DNA of 61,503 nucleotides, the filler included, from Dugesia japonica (Eukaryota), in NCBI GenBank assembly GCA_001938525.1. It is 5 parts of 5 records of this genome, joined end to end, with 100 filler letters (N's around TTAATTAATTAA, not from the genome) between each part and the next. Parts side by side here need not be neighbours in the genome. Positions count along the whole stretch, not along the records: positions 1 to 22,411 come from MQRL01633926.1; 4 more parts are not named here. One strand, written 5' to 3'. The translations under genes were made by a program, and so were the position numbers. How positions within the stretch are numbered: position 1 is the stretch's first letter; every line of letters starts with the position of its first letter. Below the pieces are notes generated by a model, which saw only the letters and a list, made by a program, of their open reading frames with translations, had not been told where the DNA came from and did not search any database. This document shows positions 1,075-30,945 of the stretch, in pieces.

Positions 1075-1280
1075 TATCTAATGCTATAAAAATAAAATAT
1101 AACTGATTAAAACGAATCACTTAACAACAGCAGTAAATGACAAAAAGAAAATAGGCAAGTAACACCCGAATGGCTTTATTTAAAAAAAAAGCATTTAAAC
1201 ATGATTGTCCGAAAATAGGATAAATGATTAGAGCCATTGATGATATTCGCGTGACTGGGGATTTGATCTAGAAAATGGAG

Positions 1281-1463: not shown

Positions 1464-3625
1464 GACTAAATGAAAATTGTATCAAGGAATTGTGACTCGA
1501 ATTTATAGGGCCTAGGTTGGGGTCTTACCGTTAGCGACTCTATTGGCTGTAACCTTAGGAAGAGGACGTTATTTGTGCAATATGTATAGCAATACTCATA
1601 GTGGCCCACAATACCACGCTACAATAAGAGCAGTACGGTTCATAATAATAATAACTACTTATACTAAGGATAGGCATTGAATTAAGAATCATAATGGTAC
1701 AGACACAAAAGTGGATGAACCCTTTATTCCCTTTGATTTGTTAATAATTCCACTGAATGCCAAACCCCATAGTTTCATTCAATTACTATAGGTACCAAAA
1801 GGAAGCATTTCAGCCGATGGTACAACTGTATTCACTATTATCACTAAGGAACCTATTTTAATGGATTATTTGGCGAGTCCAGATTCCGAAATGGTCGGGC
1901 TTTTATTTCGAGGAGATAATCAGTCGTATCTATTGCACTCGCCAATGAATCTTTATAATACAAAAAATATAGCAATTATTATAATAAAACCCAAAAGAAA
2001 ATTTAAAAGGAACAAGTTATTGGTTGCATTACCATGCCTACTACTCAAGGCCATGGCTAAATTACCAGTAAATCTATATTCATTAACTTCGCTAGTTGTT
2101 AGTGTGTTTAAGACAGTGTGTGTGGCTAAACTATCATGCCCGTTGACGTTGTTAACACACACCAGCAATATACAGCAATTCAGCTTATGATACTTCTAAT
2201 TTAAGTAAGAGAGGAAAATAAATTTTCTATCTTATGAAGTTATTTATTAAACGAGGCATTATCATCGAATTTCTATTTAAACTTAATGCAAAATAGGAAC
2301 ATCATTTAAAGTGTGCTGCTGATGGAATAATTAATCATATTGGATAAAATTGTTATTACCGTCCAAAAATTGGAAATTTCAAACAGCCTAAAAATGCCAG
2401 CGTTACTCATCAATATTGCAATGGACTTTATTTTATCGGATCGAATTTAATTGTCATGAGAGGCATTTATTATCGTGAGTTTTCTATTGAATTAAGATTA
2501 TCGTAAATGCCGTATAAATTTTAGGTCGGTTAATGTTTTTTACATCAAAATAAGTCCACGACCATTTTTAATTTGGCTGTCATTACCAGTAAGTTATTTG
2601 GTCTGGTCATTTCATTGGTAATTATTATGATAATGAAATAGAGTTACCTGGGTTGTTTGAAGTAAATTCTTTTCCGTTGGTAAATCTCGTTTAAAATTCT
2701 ATCGTCTTATCAGATAGGTGGTAGCAGTGGCTCAATATATGTTATATGAATATATTTGTAATGATTCCATACGAGTGTTTTCTTTTATATGCAAATTAAT
2801 CATTTAGTGGTATTAGATCAAATATCAGTGCTATACAATTACACGAATGATTTTAGTTAGTATTATTTAGATACCTATTTGATGTTTTATTAGACTAAAA
2901 TTCAAGGCGTCGTTTGTTAAAGATAGGAGAGTAATTGCTAAATTTCTTAAAGCATAATTCATAAACATAGAATTAGGTAATTGCATATGAGTGGTTCTGA
3001 TTAGAATTATGTATTCACATGTTCAAAGATTGCATCAACTAATATTGAATGTTGAATTTATGAAAGAGATAATTATAATTACTACATATATTTAAACGTA
3101 TTCCATAAACGGAGAAATAAATTATTATATATGAATAGTTTTGTTTAGAATTATCTATACACATAATAAAAATTTCATTGACCAAACTTAAAAGTTTATT
3201 TTATTAAATAGAGAATTATAATTATTAAATTCATTTAAGCATATTCCACACATATAGAAATAAATAATTACTTATTTTTATTTCCTCAAACGCAATTAAG
3301 TCGAGATGGATGAACTTGCCTCTTTTCTCTGCAACGGGTACTAATCAAATATGTTTCGTGAGGTTTCGAATGGAACACTTCCTGAGTTGAACTTCTTTAC
3401 TTATGGTTCTAAAAAATTAATTAATTCGTTTTCTTCAGCGATTATCCCACTTGTTGTGATTTTTCAATCAGTTGGCAACTTGTTGCGCGATAATTGATAA
3501 CCTAATAACTTTCTTCTCCTTAAACTGAACTAACAAAGTGTTTATAGATTTCCGTTAATTGTACGTAGGTTTGACGATTATAGTTTTGGTAATTGTTAAG
3601 TTTTTTCGTCTAAAACCGGGGTTCC

Positions 3626-3830
3626 TTATATATGATTTTCTGGACACCCCAACTAGGTTTAGATTTGCCGGTATTTTTAGAACGGCTCTTTTCTGATTCT
3701 ATTGGTGCTAGCACCGATTTTAATAATTTTTCTATGAATTTTAGTGCCATGATTGGCAGTTATTTTTAGGGGAGCACCTGACATCGGTGTCTTTGTTTTA
3801 TTTTTATTTTCTGACCACTGATTGGTAGAA
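3626..3830 (-). promoter_or_regulatory. Pol II promoter of LTR copy a (CCAAT boxes + TATATAA)
   Basis: AAAATCATATATAA preceded by three CCAAT boxes; same architecture at 10732-10930 and 17729-17936. Confidence 0.65.
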
Positions 3831-4655
3831 TCTTAGAATCCCTATCATACCCCTCTGGAAGGTGGTATGTTTTTTCTTTTTTGGGTCTGAATTGCACTCG
3901 GCCATTTTCTGCTCAATTTTTCTTATTTGCAAGCTTTCTGACGACCTGGTCCAGAGTTATCTGTAAAAAACAGATTTTCATCCAATTTTCATTGATTTTT
4001 TGCTTAAAATTAATTAATTTTTTTGTAGTAATTAATTATTTCTTATTATTGTTTTTCTGGTTGCTTCTTTTAAAATTATTAATAATTTTAATTGTTGATC
4101 AATAATGGGTTCCTTTCTTCTACACCTTCCTCACTGCATGTTCATTTCTTTTTATTACCACTTTAATGTACTTTATTTCTTTTCTTGATCTATTTTCTAC
4201 TTTATTGGGTGTTCCACCCCAACAGAATTATCGAGTTTCAGGGCTTTACTAATTAACTTTTTTGAATCCTGATTATCTTTTTCGCTTTCATCTTTGTCGT
4301 TTGCGATGCAATTACAACTCCTTCTTTTCTCCAGCTCAGCGTGTCTTTGTGGTAACCCATCTTCAGATTCTAATGCAATAAAGAAACGATAAAATTGCAT
4401 AATTAGAACTGTTGGGGTACCAACTGAGTTGGTGTTAGAAAAATGGTGGCCGGGGTAAAATCAGTCCTCAGAAGTCCCCTTCAAGAATTTACCTAATGTC
4501 CTTTATTAGTTTTTCGGTATAGAGCGGTTGACTTCCATCATTTATTTGAAGTACACACTTGTATACCTTTAATTTCGGGTTCATTATTTTTCCCTTGTTC
4601 TACTTATTAAATAAATTAACAATAAGTTAGACTTAGTTTTATTTTTCTTTATTAA

Positions 4656-5017
4656 CTACATGTATTTCAGAGCACCCGGGTCTAACCACTGGGTAGGCTC
4701 TACAGACTTAAAGTTAAAGGTGGCCTCGTCCTCCTCACTGTTCTAGCAAGTTCAAGTTTCCTGTTCAAGGCGGTTGGCCAAATCGGCAATGTATTGCTGA
4801 AGGAATTCGATTTTGTGTGTAAGAATTTGTTTGGTGTGTTCCCCAACTCGCTTTGCTTTTTAACGATGAGATCTAATTTTTTAATTAATCGGTTGCGCTG
4901 GGTGAGGTGGCGTAGAAGCGCTCGTTTTTTCCATCGTTTGATATGGCACTCAAGTAACAATTTCTGGCTAAGCCAGTGACAACTGCAAAGGCTGGTAGGA
5001 CAACAAATTCTAAGCAT
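4656..5017 (-). pseudogene. LTR ORF family C (coiled-coil plus W-rich C-terminus), frameshifted
   Basis: LIKKLDLIVKKQ.. then, after a frameshift, QYIADLANRLEQET*TC*NSEEDEATFNF..PTQWLDPGALKYM. AATAAA at 4648-4653. Confidence 0.75.
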
Positions 5018-5856
5018 TGCAAAGAAATAATCGAGAAATAAAATTACTTTAATTTTAATTTAGGCAAAATAACAGACGAAAATACACCAAGGTAAACAAA
5101 CACGAAAGATTCATCATAACAGAACACTTTATTTACATCAACAGGATTGTTGGGCTAGAACACATACGCCCGGCAACAAAGCATATAAAAAGAGTGAAAG
5201 TAAATAAGAAAAAAATGAAAATTGAGAAAAATATGTAGAGAAATAAGCAATGCTGGGCCAGAGAATTAATTATTATTATTTGTATTATTCTTATTGTCTT
5301 CATTATATAATTATTATAATAAAAAGAAAATTGGGCATAGAGGATCTATATTTGAAATGCAAAAATTTTGTAATTTATTTATGAGATGAATATTATTAAN
5401 AAATATATACTAAGAATAATAATACTATACTATAATATAAATAAAGAGGTCTCTACGACCTTATTTTATTACTATAATAAAGAGAAAATTTTCTTTTAAT
5501 ATTATTTTTATTATAATTTTTGTTGTTATTTTGTTAATTAACGAAAATTTATCTACTGGTTTTTCCAAATGCTGAATCAGCAAAATTCAGCTGAATTCAG
5601 ACAAAACAGATAAAGCTATTTTTACTTGATGACCTGAATTTGGANNNTCCNAATTCAGTNTCAATCANTCCTGCATACAGACACAAAACGAAGATGTNCA
5701 GAGAAGAGANAGCNCNCGTAACGAGAATAAAGTAACTCCTAATCAAAACGCTAGATTTTAAAATTCTCGACGAGATATAATCAAAATGAAAGGAAATAAT
5801 CGACACTTCTTTTTTTACGAAACCACTTTAATCACAAAAACTTGTATTAGTTCGAT

Positions 5857-6138
5857 TTGTTCAACAGAATTAGTACAGCAGGAAAAGTTTCGGCAGAGCT
5901 AAAAGAAAATTTTTACATCATCAAACAATTTACCGGAGAAAAACCAAATTTGAGATTTAGAGTAATTTTAAATTTTTTAGCTTTTAATAACCTATTAATC
6001 CGAGTGACATCCTCCAAAAAGAACGACCGTGGTCCTGATGGAACACGTACAACTTATTACAGAGACTTAAATGAAAAATATCATTGTACTGACGATCGTG
6101 TTCCAACAGCATCAACTTTAAAACAGATCGAGAAATAA
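5857..6138 (+). CDS. Small unknown ORF (family F) inside the nested LTR; true start uncertain
   Basis: C-terminal DG..YHCTD..TLKQI resembles a paralog at 7252-7452. Confidence 0.4.
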   Translation: MFNRISTAGKVSAELKENFYIIKQFTGEKPNLRFRVILNFLAFNNLLIRVTSSKKNDRGPDGTRTTYYRDLNEKYHCTDDRVPTASTLKQIEK

Positions 6139-6149
6139 AATGTGCCGAG

Positions 6150-6760
6150 TTTAAAACTTAGAGTGTATGAAAGTTTAAACCGATTGAAAATTAAAATGAA
6201 GTAACTTTGAATCTGACCAAGAGTTAAAAAGTGCTGATGTTAGAGCAATCGAGAGTAAGAATTATTGAAGTTGAAATGCCGGTCAAATCAACGAGAATAA
6301 AACGCAGTAATATAGTTGAAATGATCTTAATTAAAATACTATTATAGATAATAAAATTGAAATGATCCAAATTAGAAGGATGTTTGAGATCATAAAGTTG
6401 AAATGTTAATCGAAATACTAAACTCAAACGGCTAGTCGAAATATGTTACGTGAAAATGTGGTTCGAGAAATGAAGTGGTAATGATTAAAGATAAAATGTC
6501 ATCCGAGCTAAAAAAATGAAATAATCAAAGTTAAAATATTGTTCGAGATGAAGAAGTTGAAATGTTTGAAGTTCAAATGCTATTCGAGATAAAACAGTGA
6601 AATGATTAAAGTTAAAATGACGTACGAGAGAAGATCGTCAAATGTTCGAAGTTAAAGGTTGATCGAGATTAAAGTTGACCTGTTATGCGGGTTAATAAAG
6701 TTAGAATGTTAGTTGAGATTAATAACATATCTGGTAATAAAATGTTGTGGGACATTGAGA
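6150..6760 (+). repeat. Degenerate ~40-bp tandem repeat inside the nested LTR
   Basis: Recurring GTTAAAATG..TCGAGA..GAAATG units with 40-41 bp period. Confidence 0.7.
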
Positions 6761-7251
6761 AAATATCTAAACGGAGAATGTGGTAAGTGAGATAATTACA
6801 TGTCGGGAGCTTGAATATGATTCTCGGAAATTAAATAATGAGGAGAGATCTGTTTTAATGTTCCTCAGTAACATGTTCCTTTCTTGGTTNNNNNNNNNNN
6901 NNNNNNNNNNNNNNNNNNNNNNNNNNNNNNNNNNNNNNNAAATCTGATAATAAACTTATTAAGATCATATGATATTTTAATTAATTTTGTTTATTGAAGT
7001 AAATAATCATTAACCAACTAATCAATTCAGTTTAATTTTATCGTAAAGTAAAAGTCGTTAAGATCTCAGTGAAATAGAGACGTCATGTTGTACAACTTTC
7101 ATATGATCATTACATCTAAGTTGTATTCGGAAAGCTATCATCGAACATGTAGATATAAATAAATAGTTATTGCTGTTGAGAGAGTATTATTGTGTTTTAG
7201 TTTTGTATTATCAATTTCATTGTTTGTATAAGCTGTGATAATAAGAATTGA

Positions 7252-7452
7252 GATGGTAGAAGTACTGAGCAGAGTATAAAAATCAAGTATCAGGATAGAG
7301 AATTTCATTGTAAAGACGCGATGCCACATAGTCGCACAAGAACTCTGAAACAGATAGGCATGGTACAGAGGTACCATCAACGCTTGTGGTTTTTCGGTAT
7401 GCCCCTGGACATCGTAGTGAGAAATATAAATTATGAGTACAAGAACAACTAA
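7252..7452 (+). pseudogene. Family F paralog fragment inside the nested LTR
   Basis: DGRSTEQ..EFHCKDAMPHSRTRTLKQIG..; open 66 codons after an in-frame TGA. Confidence 0.4.
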
Positions 7453-7535
7453 TGATAAAATCAATTCAAACAACAAAATAAAATTTAAACTGTCATTTAA
7501 AAATTCCTAAAAACCCAACAGGATGTTACGTCAGG

Positions 7536-7891
7536 TTAAGGACAAGAAGTCTGCTTTGATTTATTAGTCATCAACGGCTCTAAAGGCATTCTCCTTAATT
7601 CGAGGAGATCGTTGACTAGTTTATTCTCACGGTCATGAAGGGACCGGATGATCTATTTAAATGATTCTATTTGACTTTTCCACAGTCTTTTCTGTGCATG
7701 GGACGCTTCGGCTTCCTTATGAAACGCGATGCATTTATTTTTATATCGCTTGACCTTACTTTCAGCAGCGACTGTATCGGCCTCCCAACGACGTTTAGCG
7801 AGACTGTAGACATCTTATGTCATGTTTATATTCTCGCTGTTTTCTCGCACCTGTTTCGTTGGTGCATTAGAGTGATGGAGTGAGAAGTGCA
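7536..7891 (-). pseudogene. LTR ORF family D (helical, ~118 aa), begins TG directly after the acceptor
   Basis: ttctctttgtag|TG CAC.. HFSLHHSNAP..YSLAKRRWEAD..ENKLV..NKSKQTSCP; homologous to 21259-21616; two internal stops. Confidence 0.75.
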
Positions 7892-8118
7892 CTACAAAGA
7901 GAAATTAATTTAATATTACTTTTATCTACTAGAATTATTAATAGATAACAGGGTTCAAATGAAATCTATTACACGTGATCAAGAACGAGTATAGGACTAG
8001 CATATAGCCTAGTAAACTGATACATAGTTGAGAAGAAAATGAACACTCAATTCAGAATGAATGTGATTTATTAACATCAAAATAAAAGAAAATAATCAGT
8101 GAAAAACAGCAATTACAC

Positions 8119-8484
8119 TCAGATTTCATGATAAACAGAAGAGTCAGTGTTTTCCGAGCCACCTCCACTTTCCATATTCCGGACATTCCATAACGTATTA
8201 CTTATGAATTCGCTTAGCCCTGAGAAGGAAGGTAGATGAGATGTAGTAATTGGAATGATGCAAGGGCCTTCCCATCACTCACTAGGGGTACGAAAATCAG
8301 CATTATTGACTGGGTGCTCCGTTGTAGTGGTATGGTATGTTTCACGGGCTCGATTGGAGCCGGTCCAATCATAATAAGCCTGGCGCTCGGTGGCGTCCCA
8401 ATGCCTTTTTTTATGGGTTTTTGTACTGTTTAAAGATCATATTTCTGGTCCTACGGTCCAGTAACATCTCCCATTTATATTCCA
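8119..8484 (-). pseudogene. LTR ORF family A, begins TG after the acceptor; internal deletion and stops
   Basis: tttgcag|TG GAA TAT AAA TGG = (M)EYKW; WDATERQAYYDWTG..*WEGP..FISNTLW; AATAAA at 8067-8072. Confidence 0.75.
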
Positions 8485-8640
8485 CTGCAAACTATAAATA
8501 GAAATATAAGCATATAATAAGAAACAATTTGATTTGAAGAATTTATTCTACCCATAATAAAATCTGTAAGGTATGACAATGAAATTAACAGAAATAGGAT
8601 ATAAATAAATAACAATGAGATTGGTCATAGAATTTATTGT

Positions 8641-8847
8641 TTAAAAGAGAAAACAACGGTAGTACGAGGTGTCGTCCAAATCCACTGATCATGGAATAGG
8701 GTATAATTCCACGAAACATTGGAGATCCGTTTCATCCGGACGTAGGATAAGAGTTCGGGCTAAAATGTGCCCAATTAGCTGTTTCCCATGAACCCTTTTT
8801 CTCTCGTGTCGATTTAGCCTTAAGATCCTCGGTAAAATGTCGGACAT
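8641..8847 (-). pseudogene. LTR ORF family B with one internal TGA
   Basis: MSDILPRILR..KQLIGHIL..RPDETDLQCFVELYPIP*SVDLDD; AATAAA at 8633-8638. Confidence 0.75.
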
Positions 8848-10384
8848 TTACAATAATGAGTCAAAGTTCTAGTTATAATAACCTTTTAATTTCCCAGAAC
8901 CTGTATTACCATAAAAATAATACTGTTGATACTGATTTTGTAATGAGAACTGATGTAATTATTTTAACCTTCGAGGGATCAAAGAAGAAATTTATCAATT
9001 TTGGATAATGGTACCGTTTCAGGCAATAATAACAAAATCAATCACGAGTACAGATGATTTTAATAGTGATACAAACATTAATCCCCTTGACAATACTACC
9101 GTCATCATTAGGCTATCAATGGTCCTCGAGATTTTATTAATAATAATTTTGCTTAATATTTCAACCATTTTAGCTGATGAGTAACGGAAGTGGAAACACA
9201 TTTTGGTGCTTGTGCTATTATTAAAACTGATTTTAATATTAATTATCGTGCTTGTGATGGAGTAATGTCGGGAATTATAATCATAGTTTATGCCAAAAAT
9301 AGTGACACCGTTACTAGTTCCGTAATGAACTAAGAATGGTAGTTCCAATGATAACAGGTGCGGGGATAGTCACCATAAAACTAGTCACCGACATTAACTG
9401 GCCATGATAATGATAGGGAAATGGTTCCACTCCATTTTCGCAAGAAAATTTGGCGACTCAATCAATGTTACAATTGTTGCCGTCTATAATAATCCAATCA
9501 CTATTACTCACAACCATAATGATAATAAAATAACAACGCTAATAACATAATTAAAATACATAATTAAAATATTTTGATGTTAATAAATCACATTCATTCT
9601 TAATTGAGTGTTCATTTTCTTCTCAACTATGTATCAGTTAACGTGGATATCCTTTCAGTATTAATGCTACTAGTAGTTATGAGATAGTGGCAGTCACAAA
9701 ATCACCAATAATGATAATCAAACTAATCATGTCGACTCTAAAAACATGTTTTAATTGTGCCTACTCCGTGCTAAAATATATCGATGATGAGATGGCTTAG
9801 TGTAGTAATGTTGAAATAACTCCATATTATGCGGTCAACCTGAGTTACTCTGCTGAGGTGAACTTAATCATTAATGTACCAGTTATGAGCCAATATAACT
9901 AAATAAGCAGTAAATTGGAGAAAACGCTCATTTAATGAATTACACTAAGATTATTAATTTGCTACTATATGTGACTGACCAAATAAAACATAATTGAATT
10001 CTAATTGATGAGTGGGTGTGTTCATACGTGGCCTGAAATAATAAGACAGCTGTTAATCATTCATCAATCGCGAAAACTCGTGGAACTAGACATCGCAATT
10101 TTATTCAAGCGTAATGCGTTCTGATGGGCAATGTGAATTATGGCTATTATTGTCAGATTCTACACTTATAATGGTTCGATAACATCATGAATGTGATAAA
10201 TTTGACTAATATTTGGTCATCGCTTTATTCACGGAAAATGGCAGTGTATATGGCATTTAGTTACTAAAAATAGAAAACATTTTATAAATCTTTTTCAGAA
10301 ATAAATTTTATGGATTAAATAATTTATTAATTATTAACTTGAATTTCAACATATAACATACATAATTGAAAAATAAAAATTCTT

Positions 10385-10930
10385 ACTCACTATTAAAATA
10401 AAACTGAAGTAGCTGCAACGGGTTTTCTGGATAATTTCCTAGTTAGAAACAAGTATCCGAATTAAATGATATTGAGAATTGCTTCCTTGAATTTAAAAGT
10501 AAATTTTGATTAAGTTGTAGGGAGTATTACTTTATTTTTCTGTTTCCCAACTATTGTTGTGATTTCACTCGTAGATATGCCGTAAATCCGTAATTAATAT
10601 CTATGAAATTTGTGCTTGAATGGTGGCGCTCGCAATGACAATTTTAATAGTCAATTTTTTTTAAAATAGTAATAGCTGTGATAGCCAAATTTAATTCAAA
10701 ATTGAGGTAATTTCATCTAAAATTTGGTGGGTTTATATATGATTTTTCCAACCCGATTTTTTTCGTATTGCTTGCCTATTTTTGTTTCTAATTTCTTGAT
10801 TTACATTGGTTCTGGTGCCAAATTTTTGATTTTTTCTAAGAATTTTTGATCTACTATTGGTGCCTATTTTTGGAGCACCTTGTGATTCTTGTTTCTTTAT
10901 TTCACGTTTCTTTTCTGGCCTCTGATTGGC
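10385..10930 (-). promoter_or_regulatory. Promoter, leader exon and splice donor of LTR copy b
   Basis: CCAAT boxes, TATATAAA 10732-10739, CCGTTGCAG 10413-10421, exon-final A then GTGAGT 10390-10385. Confidence 0.65.
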
Positions 10931-12419
10931 CCATTCTTCAAAACATTTTATAGACCCTCCTGATAATGGTAGGGCATTCTTGTTGGAAAATTGTAACATT
11001 TCTTCTTCAAATTTTCTTTCTAGGGTCTTTTGTGATCTTCCAGTACAAAAAATGATTTTCTCTTAATTTTAATTCTTTTTCCTTAATAAATTAATTAATT
11101 TTCCATGATGATTTTTCCATTATATTTTATTACTTTTTTCTGATTTCAGGCAATAAATTATAATTATTCGCCACTGGCTTATTATAATATTCTTCTTCCA
11201 TGATTTCTTCCGGACCCTTTTCTGATTATTAATTAGTCAAATATTGATAAATTGGTGGTAGTTATATTAATCTTTCAAATCCTATTTCTTCTTGGCACCC
11301 CAATTTCGGCACCTAGAGATATTATCCTTACTATCGGGTGTTTCACCCCAACAAAACCTAACATTTCAATAATTTTTTTTTATCAAAGGTTTCCTTCGCC
11401 AATATCTTTGTGTCTTTGTACGCTATGTCAGTGTTACTCTGTTCTTTTGTCTGCAACTCAAACCCTCTTCACAGAATTATCACGTTTACGAGCAAAACTG
11501 CTCTTCGATCTACATAAACATTTATGATATTTGCTATCACCGGTTGTTTTTGATTCGGGTTAGTTCTCTCTCTTGTAGACACCATTTCGGTTTTTGCCTG
11601 AAATAAAAGCTTTTTTGTCTATACTATCTTATCTTTAATACTTGTTGTTTAGCTTTCATTTCCACTGCATACCAATCAATACCTTCCATGATAGCATTTA
11701 CTTTGAACTATTGATCTCTGAATAATCAAAGCCTTATATAAAGTTACAAACAATGATAACAATAAATTCAACACAACGAAAATATTAAAATACTTCCAGC
11801 CGTACGGAGCTTTTCATTGGTCAAATTATAACACTCATACACTCAACACAACTACGAGAGAGTTGTAGGATTTCATACTTTATGCGCATAATGAATATAT
11901 TTGCAAAATTTGCAAAATATAAAATATTTAAAAAATTATAAAATTGATTGAATATTTAAACCTTTCAGGAAAATAAATTTTCAATTTCCATAAAACTTCA
12001 AAAATTGTTTTAAATAAATGGATATGAATAATGAAGTTTTTCTTGCTAACAATAATCCGTTATTTAAATAAATTGCACATTTTTGCTTTTAATTTCTTGG
12101 CAACTTTTGCCAGTGCAACATCCAAAAGTTTTCATGTTCTTCTGCTTGTTAGACCTCTCTTTCATCTACCTTAGGTTATTAGATGCTGCCAACAAATGTT
12201 GAGATCTACGATGTATTTCCATCAAATTATCAATTTATTTCCCTAATCATTGAAGCCACTTTCATACACTAGGTTATTACACTGTGATAAACAAATCACT
12301 CGATACTTCTAAATATTCATAAATACGTAAACACTTTCAGGGACATATTTAAATAAAACAACAGTTAATAAATCCAAACCAAAATTTTCATCATTTTATT
12401 TAAATAAAAATATTTTTAC

Positions 12420-16832: not shown

Positions 16833-17073
16833 TTGAAAAGAAATAAATCTTCATGATAATTTATTATTAACTTGCTTGTTTAAATTAGAATATAGGGAAA
16901 ATAATCAACCCGAATTAAAGGTATACGAGTGAGCACTCCAAGTAAGCGGTGGGAGTCAACCGCTCTATGCCGATAATCTAATTAGGGACATTAGATAAAT
17001 TCTTGAAAGGGTTCCCTGAGGGCTGTTTTTCCCCAGCCACATTCTTTCTCAATCCAAACTCAGATGGGACCCC

Positions 17074-17128
<55 letters not shown>
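17074..17128 (+). repeat. (AAT)n microsatellite between two LTR copies
   Basis: Pure AAT run into an N gap. Confidence 0.95.
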
Positions 17129-17728
17129 NNNNNNNNNNNNNNNNNNNNNNNNNNNNNNNNNNNNNNNNNNNNNNNNNNNNNNNNNNNNNNNNNNNNNNNN
17201 NNNNNNNNNNNNNNNNNNNNNNNNNNNNNNNNNNNNNNNNNNNNNNNNNNNNNNNGGGTGAAACACCCGTTAAAAAAGGAAAATAAGGCCAAAGGCCCAA
17301 ATCAGCAAAGAAGAACAGCAGGGCCATTACATTTACCAATAATGGAATTCAAAAGGAAAAGCAATTAAGATCTGGGGTAGGATATAACGAAAATAATCAT
17401 TAGAAAAGAATAAAATAAAATTGGAGATGGATATGAAGAACCGGGTGAATAAAACTAGCATTCATCAAAGATGGGAATTAAAAGGTATTATTAAATTAAT
17501 AATAAAAGTCAAGAAAATCATTATGGGAAAATAATTAATTAACAGAAAAATATTAACTAATTCTGAAATACAACGAAGTAAAATTAGTCAAAAATCCGTT
17601 TTATACGAATAATTCTGCTCAGGAAAATAGCAGAGGCTTTTATTAAGAAAAACTGAAAAGGAAAAGTACCCGAGCATTAGGATTTTGCAACCAGAAAATT
17701 ATATCACCATTAGGAGGGGGTCTGCAAA

Positions 17729-18256
17729 GATTGGGCCAATAAGGTGTTAAGAAAAGAAAATGTAACAAAGACCCGATCATCACATGTTGATTTAAAAATA
17801 GAGGCCAATAGAAGTCCAAGAAAGCCATGAAAAATCTGAAAAATCAACACTAGAACCAATGAAAAGAAAGAAATTCGAATTAAAAATAGTAACCAATGAC
17901 AATGATGCCGAGTTGCATCAGAAAATCGTATATAAACCTCCAAAATTTTAGATGAATTACCTCAAAAAAAATTTGTGTGTAATCTGTTAGTTAATACAAC
18001 GATATACTATAAACTCAAGAAAAACAATTTTTGGAGAGAACACTTTTGACCATTGTTATCACGATTAAAGTGTAAGGCAGAATTATACTTCAATTAATTT
18101 ACTAATTTGAATTTACCCCAAAATTATAGTAGACGAATACTCTAGTGGTAAAAGAAGAAAGTATAATAGGAAGACAGAAATTCACGTGTATTCAGGCCAG
18201 AAAGGAATCCCACCATTATCTAACCGTTGCAGAAAAAAATTTAAGAAAGAGTGAGT
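17729..18256 (+). promoter_or_regulatory. Promoter, leader exon and splice donor of LTR copy c
   Basis: Several CCAAT boxes, TATATAAA 17929-17936, CCGTTGCAG 18224-18232, A(18250)|GTGAGT. Confidence 0.65.
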
Positions 18257-20294
18257 AATAATTTCTATTTTCAATTTGGTGTAATATATGAAGAAATGTG
18301 TTAATAAGATTCAATAAATAATTTGCTATAATTTAACTTTCGTTTAATGATTTGTAAAATGCTAAAGAAAAAAAAAATATTTTTTTTCCAGACAACATTT
18401 AGATACCGCATGCCAGACCGCCGTCGGTGATCATACGATCAATAATGATAACACCAAAATTTTGACGATATCATGAAGCTATGCTGCATGTAAGAAAGCA
18501 AAAACAAATTGTCTGATAATAGCCGTTAAAATTGCTCATAGAAATTCTCTGGATCCGAGCGTAATGTCTACTTTCCTCACGTTAGACGAAAATCAATTAA
18601 ATAACAACTGGCACACTCTCTTTATAGTCGTGGATATGGCAACATCACAATCCAGATACACTTAGGTTTCTCACACACACGCGTAAGCAATCAAGATTGA
18701 TCATTGTAAACTTAATGCAACCGCTCAGCAAAAGTGTGTGTCCTGACCTGGGCAGAGGAATTACCATATGTTCTCAGATATTTTTTGCCAATATCACGTT
18801 ATCGTCGTATTTTCTTGTTTAGTTGGATATGATTTAACTGTTACGAATGACAGATGTAGAAACTCTCAGTTATCAGTATTAACTAATCATGTGACTGTTT
18901 TAATTACCGCTAAAAGTGTCAATCTATTATCAGTCTTATCTTCAACCTATAGATGACAATCGAGAACGGTCTGAAAAACATTGTTAATTTTATCAGACAC
19001 TCGTTCCGTCACTTCATCAGAAATGTAACTGTTAGGGTCATCACAGCTTGTTGATAAAATGCATCAGACGTTGGTAAGAATATAAATCTCGACATGATGA
19101 TTCGCAAATCACACGATATCGACTGTTAATCACGCCATGAAATCATTGTTATTATTATCTTGAATCGCTGTTAGTCCTCAACGTTAGTGATAACGTAAAT
19201 AGTCAAAATTAATGTCCTTACCACAAATTTGCTATTATAAATCATGGTCATAAGTGTTATAGGTATTATTATTCTTCTGACCATTATTAATTACCATTAT
19301 TATTGTTGTCTCATTGATTCAATTATTAAAAGTTCCCTCAATAATATATAGTTATCATGATTATTATCTCATAATGTTATCGGTATTAATATTGTTATTA
19401 TCGTATTATCATTATTATTACTAGTATTATTAACATTATTATTATCAATATTATTATTATTATTATTNNNNNNNNNNNNNNNNNNNNNNNNNNNNNNNNN
19501 NNNNNNNNNNNNNNNNNNNNNNNNNNNNNNNNNNNNNNNNNNNNNNNNNNNNNNNNNNNNNNNNNNNNNNNNNNNNNNNNNNNNNNNNNNNNNNNNNNNN
19601 NNNNNNNNNNNNNNNNNNNNNNNNNNNNNNNNNNNNNNNNNNNNNNNNNNNNNNNNNNNNNNNNNNNNNNNNNNNNNNNNNNNNNNNNNNNNNNNNNNNT
19701 CCTAGCGTCATTATTATTATTACTATTCGTGTCATCATTATTATTATGGTTCCTATTAGCGTTATTATTATCAACATCCTTAAAATTATTAATATTATTC
19801 GTATTATTATTGCTATTATTATTAATATGCCCATTATTATTATCACCCTTCTTAGTATATTATCATTATAATGCGTAGTGTTACTATTATTATTTCTTTA
19901 CGGTTATAGTTATTATGGTTATAATCATTGATACTATTAATATTAATTTTCTTATTAGCCTGGTGCATGGAGTTAGTAGGTTAATGTTATCGACCTTAAC
20001 GTTAGAGTTCCCTCATTACTACTGATAATGTTGATACTATCATTGTAAGTAGTANNNNNNNNNNGTTAAATGATATTGTAAATAATTCTATGGTTTTACT
20101 AGCGTTAGTCACCTCACTTTTAACTCCATGACTACATGCTCCTGATTCCACGGACAGAGCTAATAGAAATACACCTAGATCTCGCCCATATTTTAATAAC
20201 GAGAGATGTCATCAGTGGTAACCACTTCATTTAAGACGGTTCAGGAGAACTGAATCATGAATTTAATTTATAAATATTTGTTTTACTCTAGTTG

Positions 20295-20477
20295 ATGCCG
20301 GCAGTATTACGAGACACTCTTCGTCTAATAAGGAAGCAACGTCAAACTACTCGCCTGAAGCAGTTGATAGCACACTATTTAACGAGTGGTAAAGTTGAAC
20401 ATTCCTACAAGACTGATCTCCAGTGTTTCGTTGAGATGTTCCTACTCGAATATAAAGTGGACATGGATGAGGAATAA
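20295..20477 (+). CDS. LTR ORF family B, intact 60 aa
   Basis: MPAVLRDTLRLIRKQRQ..KQLIAH..TDLQCFVE..VDMDEE; acceptor at 20290-20291; stop overlaps AATAAA. Confidence 0.75.
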   Translation: MPAVLRDTLRLIRKQRQTTRLKQLIAHYLTSGKVEHSYKTDLQCFVEMFLLEYKVDMDEE

Positions 20478-20681
20478 AAGATCGGTCTTATTTATTTGCG
20501 GATACTTCGCATGAAATAAACCTTAATTAATGTGTTTGATTATGTGCAATTCTTATAAAATAAACCCTAAATATTGTTTTAATTGCGAATAATTCTTATG
20601 AAATCTATAAAATATTATTATTTTATAGATTGTAGTCTTTAAAAAAAACCTTACCAGTTATCATTCTAGGATCAGCATCAA

Positions 20682-21110
20682 ATGGAATATAAGTGAGAAG
20701 TAAACCTTGATATCCATTCAGGTAGAACGGTGTTTAAAAGGTATCAAAACCCGTATAATCACGACGCCGGAGTGCTGGTAGATCACTCCAACCTCTCTAC
20801 TGAACAAATGACAGACGAAAGGCGATGGGATGCGACTGAGAGAAGCGTTTATTACAGCTGGTGTGGTCCTAGAAGAGACAGAGTCGCGTTTCCCCCGGCT
20901 CCACTTTCTTTCGAGAGATCGGCTGAAGTACCGCAGATAGAGCGTATGTGGCATGATGGGCCTTCATTAGTCGGCATCACCACGAACCGCTTACCCTCAA
21001 CTTCCCAACTAACTTCTTTCGTCCAGAATTATTTATGGAGTGCTCAAAATGAAGCGTCTAGTAATAATGACGAAAATACCAAAGAAGAAATTTCGGAAGC
21101 TTCGGTGTAA
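20682..21110 (+). pseudogene. LTR ORF family A with W5>TGA
   Basis: MEYK*EVNLD..FKRYQNPYNHDAGVLVD..; acceptor at 20668-20669; AATAAA at 21124. Confidence 0.8.
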
Positions 21111-21258
21111 AGCTGTTGAATAGAATAAATATTTAATTAGGTGTTTGCGTTATCTGACTCGTTGTTACTGTTGTTAGCTATAAACCCAGTCTGTCTTCAT
21201 TTATTAAAATATAAATCTACTAATATCCTGTCCTTCTTTATTTGTATTTGTATTTCAG

Positions 21259-21616
21259 CGCATTTATCCTTGAATAGATCTCATGCCCCGAATAAAAAAT
21301 TACGTGAAACCAGTGAGGGCATAGAGCTCACGTGGGATTTGTATCGGCTCGCTAAGCGGGGTGGAAAGCCGAGACTTCAGCAGCGGAAGCTAAAGTTAAT
21401 CGCTATAATCGGAAATGTTTAACGTTTAAATCCGAAGTAGACGCGACTCAGAACCAAGAGAGGGTTTGGAAGTTGCAAGTCTAAACCTTCACCGAAATAA
21501 TCAAGTCTTATCAGGAGTGTGAAAATAAACTAATGGAAAATATATTGAAATTGAGGACAGCCATACCTTTGACCCCACTCTTGATAGACAAAGGTACCCA
21601 GACTAGCCGTTCCTGA
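21259..21616 (+). pseudogene. LTR ORF family D, ends DKGTQTSRS
   Basis: tatttcag|CG CAT..; YRLAKR/WKAETSAAEAKV..ENKLM..; one frameshift, one stop; AATAAA at 21646. Confidence 0.75.
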
Positions 21617-21735
21617 GTTTTCGTGTTTAAATTTTTATTAACCCTAATAAATTGTTTACTATTTGTATTTTTTCTAATCTACTTCTCCGATTTTAGTTAT
21701 GGAGGTTGTCTACGTGAACTATAATTTTTCTTTAG

Positions 21736-22118
21736 TGCCTTGAATTGTATTCCCGACTAGTTTGCGGAGATATCACCGGATCATGCGCCGTCTGTTGCTG
21801 GAACGTCACCTAAAGCGTAAAGCAGACCGGGCCTTTCTTAAACATCTGGCCCGGTGAGACCAATTAATAAAAAAGTTGGATTTGATAGTTAAGAAACAAA
21901 ATGAGTTGGCGGCCCAAACAAAGGCCCTTGAAGCAGAAACAAAACAACTGCTACACAGAAAGAGATATTTTCTAAAACAATATATAGCGGACCTTTCTTG
22001 CCAGATTGGTAATCCAGCTTGGGTTCAATGGAACGACGATGATGATGTCGCGGCGTTCAATTTTTTGACCACCGACCCAGACCAGTGGTTAGACCAAGGT
22101 GCTTTGGATCTCATCTAA
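21736..22118 (+). pseudogene. LTR ORF family C, begins TG after the acceptor
   Basis: tttttctttag|TG CCT..FPTSL..LLLERHLKR..LIKKLDLIVKKQ..QYIADL..WVQWNDDDD..DQWLDQGAL; two TGA at Arg positions; AATAAA at 22130. Confidence 0.8.
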
Positions 22119-22208
22119 TTTTCAATTAAAATAAAGTTTTATTGTTCAATTCGTTTTAATCTTTGATAAAGCCGTGTGAATAGTGAAAAGAGTGAACCCA
22201 AATTCAAA

Positions 22209-22366
22209 GGCCTATGGATGCGCACCTCCTATCAAGAGAGAGGTCAACCTCCATAGACTGAATACCTAACCTAGGGGCGTTAGGTTAAATTCTTGAAAGG
22301 GTCCCCTGAGGGCTGTTTTTCCCCAGCCACCTTTTTCTTCATTTCGACTCAGGTAAAACCCCAACA
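22209..22366 (+). other. Conserved multi-hairpin domain at the LTR 3' end (also 16920-17077, 4410-4567 minus, partial 30725-30762)
   Basis: Compensatory base changes between copies in three stems. Confidence 0.7.
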
Positions 22367-24651: not shown

Positions 24652-26040
24652 GTGAATGGACATAGTGGTTGCCAGTTAACTATGACTGCGTTAAATCAAA
24701 CATGGGTTAATCACACTACCAAGTATTGTTGGATAACTCGGAAGGAAATGAAACTAACATTCGCGGGATTAATGGTAGAAGTCCTGGAATCGGCACTCAG
24801 TCGAGCAGGATATCAATGCTTAACAGATAAATTTGTATGCACTCTCAGCGCTCTAGTGAATTTTAAGGCCAGAAAAAGCTATTTATACGATTTTGGGCTA
24901 AAACCAGGAGAGGAAATTGAACTCATAATATTCGATAAACACCCTGGTATAGATTATGATGTGTGGGTAACGAAAACCGGGAGATCAGCTCTAGAAATCA
25001 TGGAAGAATAGGTAAATCCTATTAAAATTAAGATACTCTCCATAGTATTAAGAAAGAAAGACCATCTGACAAAGCAGNNNNNNNNNNNNNNNNNNNNNNN
25101 NNNNNNNNNNNNNNNNNNNNNNNNNNNNNNNNNNNNNNNNNNNNNNNNNNNNNNNNNNNNNNNNNNNNNNNNNNNNNNNNNNNNNNNNNNNNNNNNNNNN
25201 NNNNNNNNNNNNNNNNNNACAAAGTACAAGCTGAGAAAGAAAAGTTACCCCGAGAAACTTATTGGATTATAATGAATAGAATTTACGACATATACGATGA
25301 GATTTAAATACCGGAAGAAATCGAAGATCAATAGCTCACAATTAGACAGAAATATGCAGTAATTTACCTGTACAAAAGTAAGGCCATAGATGCTGAATTT
25401 TAATCCAATCCTAAACATTGTTATTATGAGATAGAGATTATCCATAACAATGAGAAACGTTATGTAAAACCAATTACTCGAAAAATATCACCACTAGTGT
25501 ATAAACCGAATATCATAAACTGCTCCAATGTATTTGGACCTCAATATGTAATGTCAGACGGGTCGTGGATAAAATTCCGTCAACGAATGGTAGTGGGGGT
25601 TGAGCCCCGGAAATTCTCAATGTTACAATTAAACGGAGGAATTCAATTCACCCCAATTGATGTAAACAAAAGAGGTATTTACTGCAAGAAAAAGCCAGGG
25701 AATATATGTTATTTCCCGTCTGAAGAATGCAGATTTTGTCAAATATAGTGCAATTAACCAGTGGAACAAACATAGACGGACGTTTTAATTATGATGCACT
25801 ATTGTCAGCCGATCATTTCTAGAAAGCTACCGAAAATGTCATGCGGAAAATGCGGGGAAGATTCATAATATTTCGTCAAGCTATGGCAGGGTTGTTAGGA
25901 GTTATGTTAATAATTTTAGTAACACGAGTGGTGATTACGCAGTTGTTTGCTTGTTTCGAAATCTACAAGAGAGAACAGAAAGTGAATTGGAAAATGATAA
26001 CTGGATTATTTCCATTTTTAGNCAAAATTATGTTGCTCAA
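24652..26040 (+). pseudogene. env-like class III fusion glycoprotein remnant (chuvirus-G / herpes-gB type)
   Basis: 25350-25683: VIYLYK..HCYYEIEIIHNNEKRYVKPITRKI..IINCSNVFGPQYVMSDGSW..GIY, then TM block FIIFRQAMAGLLGVMLIILV..WKMITGLF. Recognised by eye only. Confidence 0.65.
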
Positions 26041-26643
26041 CAGCCACTCAAAGTATTTCGACAGAGATAAACGTTTCATTTACAAACTCGGACAAATAAG
26101 AAGATTGAATAAGAAGGTTGTAATGCAACTCCGGTTGTTGTGTGAGGAAATGAGCAATAGTAAAAAGAAAATATCATATTTCAACCAATTTAAGGAAAGG
26201 TTTAAGAATAAAAGTGAAAGTAGTAGTAGTAGCGATGATGTCAGGAGGAGAGCAGTGGAATGCCACATGCACCAAGTTATAAAACCGCCATGGAGTATGA
26301 TGCAGAAATTTAAAAACAGCAATATATAAAAACCAGTAAAATGTAACGATTGAAAAATGCACTGAGATTTGGAGGAAATGAAAATACACCAGCACCTGCA
26401 CAGATGTATTATAACGCATATCCGCAGCATGGTTGGCAACCCATGAATCAACAGCCACAACAAGTACGGGCACAAGGTCCAATGTACAACGATCCTTATA
26501 TGAGGTCACCACAAGCACCTAGTATGGCATTGTTAACATAAAGTAACCTATCAGCTATTGACAGAAGAATTACTGACAAAAATTTGCGTTCTCCAAATAA
26601 CCAAATTACTAGCGATGACAAACTGGAAACTCAAACCGTATGT

Positions 26644-28800
26644 ATGATGATCTCCCAAGGATAAAAGTGAACGGAAGATGGGTTATAGCCATCATTGAAA
26701 CGGGAGCAAGTATGACTCTAATTCAGAAGAGAATATTAGAAGAATACAGATTTTTCAGAATAAAAATTACTAAAGGAGTTATCATTACTACATTTGGAGA
26801 ATAAATATCACCATTAGGAGAAACAATCTGTGAAATGGATAGCAATAGAATCTGACTATGGCATAAAATGCAGATAATGAATGAACCTCCAAATTGTGTG
26901 CTCAAAATACAACAGTTTTTAGGCCTCGCAAACTACTATCTTAAATTCATCAAGGATTTCGCAATAATCGCGAAATCTTTGCAAGAGTTGGTCAAGCAAG
27001 ATACCGTATTCATTTGGGGACCCGAAGAACAGCAATCCTTTGAAACATTACGCGATAAATTAATTACCGCACAAATTCTGATTCATTTGGATTTCAAAAA
27101 ACCATTTATACTAGCTACAGATGCTAATGGATTTACAATGGGAGCAGTACTGAGTCAATTGGACGAACAAAGGAGAGAAAGGGGGATTGCTTATTTTAGA
27201 AAAAAAATCTAAGGAGCAGAACTAACTAAATAAACTAAATTACAGTACAACGGAACGGGAGATCATGGCAATTGTGAAGGCCACCAAGCATTTTTGATCA
27301 CTTATACATGGTCATGAAGTCTTAATATAAACCGATCACCTTCCTATCTCATTTATGACCCAAAAGCCGTTACTTTGGAATAGAATGGCTAAATGGCAAT
27401 GCAGGATTATTGAACACTATTGAAATTCAAAAATGATAAAGCAAATTCAAATGCCGACTGTCTATCAAGAATTGGCTGACACGAGGAGCCCGAAAATTCC
27501 ACGAATGACTCAGAAACGTTCACTTTACGAGAATTACTTGAAAAGAAAGTAGGAATGGTTTATTTTATATTAGCCGAGGATCAAAATTTTGATGTGTTAA
27601 AACAAGCGCAAGCAACTGACGAATAAATAAAGATCATTACGAAATATATGGAAGATTACAACCTAGAGAAACTGGAATGCGAACCTAGGATGAAGGAGCA
27701 TTTCACGCCTTCACTAAAAACTGGTTAACAGCTCAGGATGGTAAAATACTGTGGTCGTTATCCCAAAATCCAGTCGGGACAAATTATTGGGAAAATATCA
27801 CAATGGAGTGTTGGGAAGACATGTCTCAAAAGAAAACATAGTCGAAATTAAGGCAGAAATATTACTGGCCACACATGACAGAATCAATAAAGGAATGAAT
27901 TGCCAAATGTCAAATATGCGCTGCCAGAAAAGTAACAGAAAAACGAGTAAAAGCAATATTAAAGCCAATCGCTGTTCTCGCGGCACCTATGGAAATAATA
28001 GCTATGGATGTAGTCGGACAATTACCGCCAACACTGAGTGGAAACATATATTAATATATATATACTAACAATCATGGACTACTTGTCAAAATTTCCTGAT
28101 GCATTTCCGATTAAGAATCAAAAAGCAACCACTATCGTAGATATACTGGTACAAAAAGTTTTCAGTAGATATGGTACACCAAAGAAAATCGTAACTGATA
28201 AAGGAAAGAATTTCATGAGCAACATATTAGCAGAAATATTGATCTTCCTCAAAATACACCAATTTAGAACATCACCTTATCATCCACAAACAGATGGGCT
28301 AACGGAACGTTTCAATAAAACATTGATTAATATGTTATCTAGTTATGCACAAAAGTAACAGAATAACTGGGATATACACAGCCCTCAACATGGAAATGTC
28401 CATCCATCAACAAAGTATACTCCATTTGGACTTATGTATGGTAGATAATGCAACATGCCAATTAATTTGGCATTTCAACCGCCTATAACTCATATTAAGA
28501 TAAAACAGACTTCGCTGCCAATTTCAAAGAAACCATGCAGAAAATATGGAAACAAGCCAAGGAAAATGTAGGGTTTTACCAAGAAAGTTACAAAGATTTG
28601 CATGATAAAACAGCAGCTCAACATGCATTCAAGAAAGGTGACATTGTATTAATCAATTTACCGGATATTTGTGTTGGTACTACGTCAAAGTAAGCCCGTG
28701 GCAAGGTCCATATGAAGTAATTGAAGTAACCAAAACTAACCTCCAAGTTCGGAAAAAAGGAACTTATTAGAGAAACCTAAAATTTATCACGCCAATCTGT
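26644..28800 (+). pseudogene. Ty3/gypsy pol remnant: protease, RT thumb/RNase H, integrase with GPY/F motif (RT core deleted)
   Basis: AIIETGAS; QFLGLANYY..TDANGFTMGAVLSQ; NYSTTERE; YYWPHM..CQIC; MDVVG..TDKGKNF..YHPQTDGLTERFN; WQGPYEV. Confidence 0.92.
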
Positions 28801-29711
28801 GTAAACAGACAGCCGTGACAGATGAAATTACNNNNNNNNNNNNNNNNNNNNNNNNNNNNNNNNNNNNNNNNNNNNNNNNNNNNNNNNNNNNNNNNNNNNN
28901 NNNNNNNNNNNNNNNNNNNNNNNNNNNNNNNNNNNNNNNNNNNNNNNNNNNNNNNNNNNNNNNNNNNNNNNNNNNNNNNNNNNNNNNNNNNNGCTAATTA
29001 AGTCAGCGGGTTAAGGCATTGGGTACTACAACACTGTACCCTATAATACCACAAGGAACACATATGCCAGTAGCAGAAAATAGCTGTGCTCACTTCTCAC
29101 AATTAACATTAAAACAGAATTATAGAAGATAACTAGATTTTTGAAAAATGGTGTTTTTAAAATATGCCGACAAACAAAGGAAGGCCAAGAAAGTAAAGGA
29201 TAGTCAGATTTTGAATCAGTATACTCATACCAAAGCCGAAAAGAAAAACATAGAAGCCAAGGAAAACACTAAAACACTAAATACCTCCTTATCTACCAAG
29301 GAACTAAAGCACTCGAGTAAAATATGCATACTTAAAATAACAAATACACCAAATAATAATCATCCTCTTTAATCACAACAGACTATATCTATAACTAATA
29401 ATAGATCAATTATTGAACTACAAAATATTAAAACGTTATTTTTTAGTTCAGATAATAAAATGCATCGATCACTTATAATCGAAGCCATGAAGTATCCTCT
29501 ATCCAATCATGTGCCAAAGAAACCAAACACCAAGGCATGAAGAAATATGTATCCATATTATACGAATAACATGTCCNNNNTCCGCAATACAACTGGAGGA
29601 GAGTTGTCTTCAATGCATCAAGAAAACACAAATTATATTTAAAAATGCACTAAAGGCCATTTACGATCAACCAGCATGGGTGTCCAGACCAGAAAATTGG
29701 TTTAGAAAAGA

Positions 29712-30419
29712 TTGGATGGATCGCGAATTAAAGCACCAATTCAAGCACCTATTCATCAATCTATCATTAAAAAATTATATCTGCCATGCACAGATATCTA
29801 CAGTGATGAATTATTAGCGTCCATTCACGTTTTTCACAGTGCATTGGTACAATGGAACTGGGTAAGAGTTTATGAACCTCCAAATGTCCAATTACTATGG
29901 GGAATGGTTGGACCACCCATTCACATAAAGTACGAATTAAAAGATGTAGCTGAATTACACATAAAATCAGATAAACTAACCCCCAGAGAATCGGTGTCAG
30001 ACAATATCGAGAATACTAGCAAAGAAATACAACAGTTTATGAAAATAATGGAAAAGTCATTTAGTGGCCAAGTGAATCAAATGGAAGAGGAAGAGAAACA
30101 ATTAGCTAGCGTAGCCTTAGGAGGGATGGAAAGGATGAAAATGACAATAATATATGATGAGATAGATCAAGCAGAGAAAGAAAAACCAGAAAATGAGATA
30201 TCACAGAAAAACACGAGTATAATTACAATGGAAGTAATAATTATAATGGCTTTGTTATTATGGGCAATAATCAACAGTTGGTATTATGGCATATTAATTT
30301 GGTTGACCATGAAACTAGACAAAAATATGGGAAAAGGATACCCAACATCAATCGTAATTTATGGAGTCGTGGGAATAATCTTACTATGGCTAGCATTACC
30401 AGCACTGGCAACTCATTAA
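29712..30419 (+). CDS. Unknown post-integrase ORF remnant with two C-terminal hydrophobic segments
   Basis: 235 open codons downstream of IN on the same strand; truncated at the junction with an LTR fragment. Confidence 0.5.
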   Translation: MDGSRIKAPIQAPIHQSIIKKLYLPCTDIYSDELLASIHVFHSALVQWNWVRVYEPPNVQLLWGMVGPPIHIKYELKDVAELHIKSDKLTPRESVSDNIENTSKEIQQFMKIMEKSFSGQVNQMEEEEKQLASVALGGMERMKMTIIYDEIDQAEKEKPENEISQKNTSIITMEVIIIMALLLWAIINSWYYGILIWLTMKLDKNMGKGYPTSIVIYGVVGIILLWLALPALATH

Positions 30420-30420
30420 A

Positions 30421-30762
30421 TACAACCTGGCGGCACAGACAAAAGCCTTATAGAATGAAAATAAATTGTTATTGCAAAGAAAAATAGATTTCCTCTAGCA
30501 ATACATACCCGACCTCTCTCGTCAGTTAGGTAACCCCACCTGGATCCAATGGGACGACAACGACGATGTTGCCGCCTTCAGTCTTTCCATAACTGATCCA
30601 GACCAGTGGTTAGACCCTGGCGTGTTATATGAGTTATAAATATTATATTAATAAATGTTTTCGCGTATCGTTAGTTGAATTTTATGTGTAACTTAAGGGA
30701 AAATAGTAAACCCAAATAAAAAAACCTATGGGCACGCACCTCCCATTAAGAGAGAGGTCTAC
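30421..30762 (+). mobile_element. 3' fragment of giant LTR (family C tail, polyA signal, start of hairpin domain)
   Basis: NLAAQTKAL..QYIPDLSRQLGNPTWIQWDDNDDVAAF..DQWLDPG (stop 30639), then ACCTC..GAGGT stem. Confidence 0.8.
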
Positions 30763-30945
30763 CACAGTAGGATGATAGTGGCACACCCGCCCACTTGCAT
30801 AGCGCTGGGCGGAACCCCCCCGGGGGGGACTCGGAAACACATTACGCTTGTGCTATGATTTTTGGGCTGGTTATTTTTTTTCTAAGATTTTTGGGATCAA
30901 AAAATTTTTGATCGGATCAAATTTTTTTTTGATCGGATCAGTTTT
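30763..30945 (+). mobile_element. Terminus of a different element interrupting the LTR end
   Basis: LTR homology stops at CACAGTAGG; GC-rich hairpins follow, then GATC-spaced subterminal repeats. Confidence 0.45.

Follow-up and report, generated by a model that had tools for sequence, protein, structure and literature searches.

The window, that is, the whole stretch of 61,503 nucleotides of Dugesia japonica DNA that was analysed, is AT-rich (G+C content of 20-45% per kb) and contains many gaps and pieces of animal-type genes. Its comparison with itself reveals a repeated TG...CA unit of about 5 kb, which starts with TGTTGGGG and ends with CCCCAA(C/T)A, and which is represented by copies A to E and by a start fragment (Table 1). 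The unit holds four small ORFs of approximately 60, 135, 105, and 110 amino acids. In all four copies that reach this part of the unit, an AATAAA lies 5' of the structured domain described here and is followed by a T-rich stretch.

Table 1. Repeat unit copies, parts of the structured domain, and neighboring features in the window
Feature	Position	Strand	Remark
Copy A, full unit plus extra sequence	4410..11353	-	domain at 4410-4594, more decayed
Copy B, internally deleted	ends 17077	+	carries the domain under study
Copy B ORF remnants, broken	ORF-a 16365-16523, ORF-d 16602-16832	+	intervening part missing
Copy C, most complete unit, about 5.1 kb	17256..22366	+	AATAAA at 22130; domain 22183-22366
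Copy C ORFs	ORF-a 20295-20477, ORF-b 20682-21110, ORF-c 21283-21610, ORF-d 21783-22118	+	
Copy D, 5' part of unit	1..4224	-	ORF-a once, ORF-b twice; 3' end beyond the window
Copy E, partial	30428..30775	+	ORF-d end, AATAAA, hairpin P2; stops after P2
Unit start fragment	22557-22574	-	
Small-ORF regions	20295-22118 (+), 64-1463 (-), 4659-8847 (-), 16365-16832 (+)		
AATAAA and T-rich spacer	16842..16894	+	putative poly(A) signal with its downstream element
Structured domain, copy B	16895..17077	+	starts GGGAAAA
Long hairpin P2	16920..16971	+	outer stem 16920-25/16966-71
P2 middle stem	16927-31/16961-65	+	register shifts between copies
P2 inner stem	16935-39/16952-56	+	
Hairpin P3	16977..16995	+	6 bp, G-rich loop
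Core, 43 nt, near-invariant	16996..17038	+	includes P5 5' strand, 17016-20
Hairpin P6	17021-25/17034-38	+	within the 43-nt core
Pyrimidine-rich bulge, variable	17039-58	+	
P5 3' strand, invariant	17059-63	+	
Terminal inverted repeat, integrase att-like end	17070..17077	+	CCC may pair with GGG 17009-11
Broken Ty3/gypsy internal region, 5' of copy E	25404..30416	+	PF24664 E 4e-9, PF17919 E 5e-18, PF00665 E 4e-12
Gypsy pieces	fusion glycoprotein 25404-25745, protease 26619-26801, RT/RNase H 26856-27209, integrase 28038-28355	+	
ORF after integrase, 237 codons	29706-30416	+	two hydrophobic C-terminal segments, no Pfam match
Host pieces, second gypsy, mariner-like, tandem array	46862-47596 (+), 33015-33293 (-), 55789-57286 (-), 59647-61143 (-), 32291-33004		

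The unit is probably a long LTR that occurs mostly in solo form. LTRs of animal Metaviridae carry TGTTRNR...YNYAACA inverted repeats and an AATAAA with a T/GT-rich stretch, according to the accessible part of PMC3601003. This end motif fits all three readable unit starts and two of the three ends (copy B ends in AATA), and the AATAAA with its T-rich downstream stretch is present in 4/4 copies. In the window we found no intact LTR pair, no primer-binding site after the three unit ends, no polypurine tract before the three starts, and no clear target-site duplication; the missing binding site, purine tract, and duplication are expected of solo LTRs. The window contains no tRNA genes. A hairpin can be formed by the first 22 bases of the unit in three of the four starts (4207-4224 and 11336-11353 on the minus strand, 17256-17268 on the plus strand, and 22557-22574 on the minus strand).

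A broken Ty3/gypsy internal region precedes copy E, which lies 3' of the integrase in the same orientation, and the link between the unit and gypsy genes is made by this one partial copy. One more match in the region (PF13975, E 2e-4) fell below the family cut-off, and a search with the integrase gave 39 matches among 61 candidates, the best being 61% identical. Burro (GYPSM1) is a giant Ty3/gypsy element of planarians with a mononegavirus-like env 5' of the protease (PMC6431247). The element described here resembles it in having env 5' of PR-RT-RH-IN, multi-kb LTRs, and many copies, and differs from it in that Gag, BIR, MATH, and dUTPase are absent from the window. Burro elements exceed 30 kb and encode one polyprotein that includes Gag, BIR, MATH, and BCL2 domains, and the window lacks the corresponding 5' part. 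The account of Burro in PMC6431247 includes neither LTR genes nor an LTR fold, and the likeness is one of description, not of sequence. The unit is likely the LTR of a Burro-like Ty3/gypsy element.

As judged from their substitution patterns, the small LTR ORFs are under purifying selection. All 16 ORF comparisons gave pS of 0.72-1.03 and pN of 0.15-0.56, and dN/dS was 0.12-0.21 in three unsaturated ORF pairs, against 0.62-2.25 in eight off-frame controls. Stops or frameshifts break the ORFs in many copies, and ORF-b is duplicated in copy D. The N-termini of two of the four proteins are basic. An acceptor-like signal, with thresholds of our own choice, lies close 5' of 9/11 start codons versus 19-28% of other ATGs. 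Searches for relatives of ORF-b and ORF-d found none, ORF-b has no relative in the PDB and its predicted model has a pLDDT of 44, and profile searches recognized no RNA-binding family among the ORFs of the unit. These are four conserved LTR genes without detected relatives.

Two further observations concern the same coding part and the beginning of the unit. The last codons of ORF-d contain a 12-base stretch that is identical in 4/4 copies, silent positions included (16791-16816, 22081-22092, and 30602-30613), and coincides with a local peak of contig depth in public runs X1 and X8; it may be a promoter or R-region signal within the ORF. The first 700 bases of the unit are conserved and purine-rich (17256-17970, with copies at 10660-11353 and 3560-4224). 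Their opposite strand encodes hydrophobic protein-like pieces with an unclear codon-position signal, and an antisense ORF there is possible.

Within the structured domain of copy B, the hairpins P2 and P3 are followed by a 43-nt core and a nested set of 3' stems. An earlier note on this DNA, made by a model from the sequence alone, had delimited the domain as 16920..17077. Its end stands, while the start lies about 25 nt earlier, at 16895, immediately behind an unstructured T-rich spacer of 47 nt that directly follows AATAAA. The stem motifs that it had proposed were found where it placed them: the inner stem as ACTCC 16935/GGAGT 16952 in copy B, ACCTC 22224/GAGGT 22240 in copy C, and at 30738/30754 in copy E; the outer stem as GGTATA 16920/TATGCC 16966 and CTATGGA 22212/TCCATAG 22250; and the next stem as TCTAAT 16977/ATTAGA 16990 and CCTAAC 22265/GTTAGG 22279. 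Its nested stems span 17009-17072, and the copy that it called b is copy A (4410-4597, minus strand). The pair probabilities of P2 in copy B are 0.96-1.0. Profile searches of the window with the domain recovered the three full copies and the partial one; no other match had an E below 0.09. The most conserved 43-nt core, the earlier start of the domain, and the four LTR genes were absent from the earlier note.

Alternative pairings can be drawn around the core. The GGG at 17009-11 has two candidate partners, an upstream CCC (16909-11) and the terminal CCC; the two pairings lie within 1.5 kcal/mol of each other in 3/3 copies, none of which has a change in either CCC. A candidate pseudoknot between the P3 loop and 17013-17 has 5/5 pairs in copies B and C and 3/5 in copy A. 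Another, between 16895-901 and the P6 loop, has 7, 6, and 6 of 7 pairs in B, C, and A, copy A being misaligned by one. Except for one pair between B and C, neither pseudoknot shows covariation.

The copies are deeply diverged. Silent sites of the ORFs are near saturation, and the spacers between the ORFs and after AATAAA are at the level of shuffled sequences (post-AATAAA identity of 0.45-0.57 versus 0.47-0.53 shuffled). The P2 region of the domain has a constant length of 77-78 nt and retains 56-83% identity. In the core, B and C share 98% identity, and each of them shares 80-82% with A. Since the spacers are random and the silent sites nearly saturated while the domain is conserved, the constraint on the domain is far above that on neutral sites. 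In these alignments, the 43-nt core is conserved in sequence without covariation.

Statistical support for the fold comes from three full copies, and for P2 also from the partial copy E. The consensus fold of the three copies (last 180 columns) has 41 pairs, 7 of them with double-sided changes, and is better than 200/200 column shuffles (z of -4.2 on the plus strand and -4.7 on the minus strand), with z of -0.8 to +1.1 in control windows lying wholly within the upstream ORF. The folds of single copies do not rise above shuffles (z of -1.4, -1.1, +0.3, and -0.1). In the outer and inner stems of P2, double-sided changes occur in 5/11 pairs and 42/44 cells are paired, which was equaled by 1/500 shuffles; with slid partners 26-48% of cells are paired, versus 95% in the true register. 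The middle stem of P2 was left out of the covariation count because its register shifts between copies. In P3, double-sided changes occur in 2/6 pairs and 17/18 cells are paired, and 41/500 shuffles were as good with respect to double changes. Together P2 and P3 have double-sided changes in 7/17 pairs. Between copies B and C, all six changes on the 5' side are matched by a change on the 3' side at the same pair (permutation p = 0.0006) and 16/17 pairs are kept; in the remaining five comparisons of copies the coincidence of 5' and 3' changes has p of 0.002-0.34. Since the structure itself was obtained from these copies, the p-values of the fold err on the optimistic side.

The nested 3' stems behave differently, with double-sided changes in 0/17 pairs. 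In GGGTTCC/GGGACCC, only 3/7 pairs are unchanged across the three copies and the stem shrinks to GGG/CCC, where the CCC belongs to the terminal repeat of the LTR, fixed regardless of pairing. This 7-bp outermost stem was rejected as a feature of the family, being specific to copy B. P5 is invariant and P6 nearly so, and they therefore provide no evidence for or against pairing. The fold is partly confirmed: P2 and P3 covary and the nested 3' stems do not. The consensus fold, conservation, and covariation bear out the earlier claim that selection maintains a fold 3' of the last AATAAA, where the LTR-like unit ends; the compensatory changes that it cited hold for P2 and P3 and fail for the nested stems.

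Public contigs add many related sequences. In run X1, the summed contig depth over copy B is 66,789-109,023 at 16999-17037 versus 3,151-4,781 at 16908-16985; in run X8, which bears a different organism label, it is 3,569-4,945 versus 82-105 in the same intervals, contig depth not being copy number. Copy C has the same peak at the core. The core is clearly common to far more sequences than its flanks. Among the 40 variants listed of 114, eight, unphased, fall in the stems (P2 outer and inner, and P3). Those at 16938 and 16953 form a compensatory couple with shares of 38% and 33% in X1 and 55% and 52% in X8. Those at 16977 and 16995, likewise a compensatory couple, have shares of 54% and 54% in X1 and are unmatched in X8 (57% versus 30%). 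The other four listed stem variants keep pairing on the plus strand even when taken alone, and one listed variant, at 16915, breaks the weaker P1b pairing. Folding as such gives no choice of strand; the wobble variants favor the plus strand, as does the orientation of the ORFs, of AATAAA, and of pol, and we lean toward the domain acting as a plus-strand RNA.

In RNA runs, 32 and 10 reads align to copy B, on mixed strands and none of them at least 95% alike; related copies show low-level transcription. Among these 42 reads, there is neither a pile-up of read starts or ends nor a poly(A) tail behind the domain. Patterns of the core had no matches in viral contigs and prokaryote genomes, an atlas search for further copies returned nothing, and a core pattern had no matches in metagenomes, where its requirement of exactly four bases at the variable spot misses the common form that is one base longer.

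We propose, with a probability of roughly one half, that the fold is a U5 leader element of a gypsy LTR that sets up the priming of reverse transcription or packaging. The placement in U5 draws on the AATAAA and the T-rich spacer, which would direct cleavage 15-30 nt after AATAAA. With such cleavage, the full-length genomic RNA would carry the domain at its 5' end only, where it would form part of the leader directly 5' of the primer-binding site. P2 and P3 would form a scaffold, and the core, conserved at the sequence level, could be read by a partner such as the primer tRNA, Gag, or a host protein. GGG 17009-11 may switch between the upstream and terminal CCC, and annealing of the primer beside the LTR end would tip the balance.

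Known systems offer partial parallels for such a leader element. In retroviruses, priming is served by the U5/PBS segment, a conserved multi-helix element with a primer activation signal. So far as the accessible part of PMC11181671 goes, this segment shares with the present domain the multi-helix form, the position (predicted for our domain) at the 3' end of U5, the overlap with the att site, and alternative pairings; in contrast, there is no similarity in sequence or in Rfam, and the predicted U5 is here about 200 nt long. The 5' end of Ty1 RNA contains a pseudoknot, candidate packaging signals, and PAL motifs (PMC3592414, partial text), and, like the leader proposed here, it folds at the 5' end of the RNA of an LTR retrotransposon and may serve packaging and priming. 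However, the Ty1 structure as given in that partial text lies mostly in GAG after a 53-nt UTR, whereas the present one is inside the LTR and has no palindrome above chance. Of the functions named in the earlier note, priming, packaging, and poly(A) control are still candidates. Dimerisation, which it also suggested, is backed neither by motif nor by energy so far as it would use a palindrome: no 6-nt palindrome is common to the three copies; the core looks self-complementary, yet its duplex is no better than those of shuffled sequences (20-64% of which are as stable); and a dimer of the whole domain is also no better than shuffles. A tandem G-A hairpin was rejected at +1.8 to +4.1 kcal/mol.

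As the main alternative, the fold could be a processing or export element in R or in read-through RNA, similar to RexRE or TAR, that binds a protein encoded by the LTR or controls polyadenylation or a splice donor; we hold this to be possible but doubtful. The unit does encode four selected small proteins, two with basic N-termini, acceptor-like signals are in excess before their start codons (9/11 starts versus 19-28%), and the domain is covered by RNA reads. There are also precedents in the RexRE of HTLV-1 and the R stem-loop of HML4, each spanning the gap from AATAAA to a cleavage site far away; as in our unit, these LTR folds lie 3' of AATAAA, and long HML LTRs likewise contain ORFs (PMC2664473, in its accessible part). 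However, those folds, as that text presents them, span the distance to a remote cleavage site, whereas here a T-rich unstructured spacer of 47 nt directly follows AATAAA, the usual layout for nearby cleavage. Moreover, a poly(A) tail behind the domain was not seen among the few reads, a donor-like AG|GT occurs near the end in only one of three copies (C), and the ORFs match no RNA-binding family. A bolder picture, which we consider fairly unlikely, is that of a Ty3/gypsy element resembling complex retroviruses, whose LTR would carry four regulators, each spliced separately, and would end in an undescribed tertiary RNA motif, a target of one of these regulators or a new catalytic RNA, common to many distant subfamilies.

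Constraint at the DNA level is an unlikely explanation: hairpins in the minus-strand strong-stop DNA would aid strand transfer, and the core would be a promoter or an integrase-binding site. The minus strand indeed folds as well or better (z of -4.7 versus -4.2) and, with DNA parameters, has the lower energy in 2/3 copies; conservation of the core without covariation and the small hairpin at the 5' end of the unit (3/4 starts) conform to this explanation as well. However, DNA parameters lose the outer P2 stem of copy B on both strands, and three of the listed variants yield G-U pairs on the plus strand but would be mismatched on the minus strand, unless partners outside the listed variants changed as well.

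It is quite improbable that the core with P3, P5, and P6 constitutes an undescribed self-cleaving ribozyme or a tertiary motif that processes the element RNA. Invariant unpaired residues between covarying stems and the two possible pseudoknots are what such a motif could look like, but the pseudoknots have no covariation beyond the single B/C pair and read ends are not piled up. The suggestion of a catalytic element in the earlier note gained no support from motifs or from Rfam, in which the window has no match at the gathering score and three chance matches to snoRNAs (E of 3-10). Searched with rough core patterns, which distant variants could escape, both strands of the three copies lack the cores of the hammerhead, HDV-like, and pistol types. 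In particular, the hammerhead known from retrozyme LTRs was rejected, as the full CUGANGA and GAAA pattern is found on 0/6 strands and Rfam gives no match. HDV-like, twister, and pistol ribozymes were rejected on negative Rfam results and rough patterns unmatched in the domain; the exceptions are an isolated CUGANGA in copy A and, upstream in copy C, an isolated AAGCC of twister type. An ENE triple helix was also discarded, the bulge being one-sided and variable and without an Rfam match. Finally, chance pairing in a G+C-richer patch, shared by descent and devoid of function, is very improbable and already largely refuted: single copies do not exceed shuffles, the copies are few, and the structure was chosen from the same data, but against it stand the conservation of the domain amid saturated silent sites and random spacers, the covariation, the slid-partner control, and the matched variant shares under two organism labels.

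Priming and packaging signals have been located in a few retroviruses and in yeast elements; for animal Ty3/gypsy elements there is, to our knowledge, hardly any such mapping. Structured U5 regions as such are already known, and what stands out is the still unexplained invariance of the core, together with the presence of genes in the LTR. Our literature search found neither this fold nor any genes within Burro-type LTRs described, which is a weak absence, as the primary Burro papers or their supplements may describe the LTR; the fold and Burro-type LTR genes are not described in the accessible parts of PMC11410931, PMC8532177, PMC13465017, and PMC13238120. The Burro family is abundant and matters for planarian stem cells, according to a secondary citation in the accessible part of PMC13465017. 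If the unit is a Burro-type LTR, the fold would define a testable element of 180 nt in an abundant family, and the 43-nt core could mark its distant subfamilies.

Several minor observations concern the surroundings of the units. Pieces of host genes (a YchF/OLA1 GTPase and an ADAM17-like gene), a second gypsy-type element (DUF7041, RVT_1), and a 26-bp tandem array are present in the window, along with two transposase fragments that, from their motifs, we take to be mariner-like. The stretch at 30776-30945, which is G+C-rich and strongly folding and is followed by short palindromic repeats, cuts copy E after P2 and occurs once in the window; it is likely another inserted element. Ends and starts of units lie about 180 bases apart in two places (4224-4410 and 17077-17256), and AAT repeats adjoin four unit ends, one of them across an N gap (including 22366-22411 and 22575-22590). 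The units may be clustered, or AAT runs may be preferred as insertion sites.
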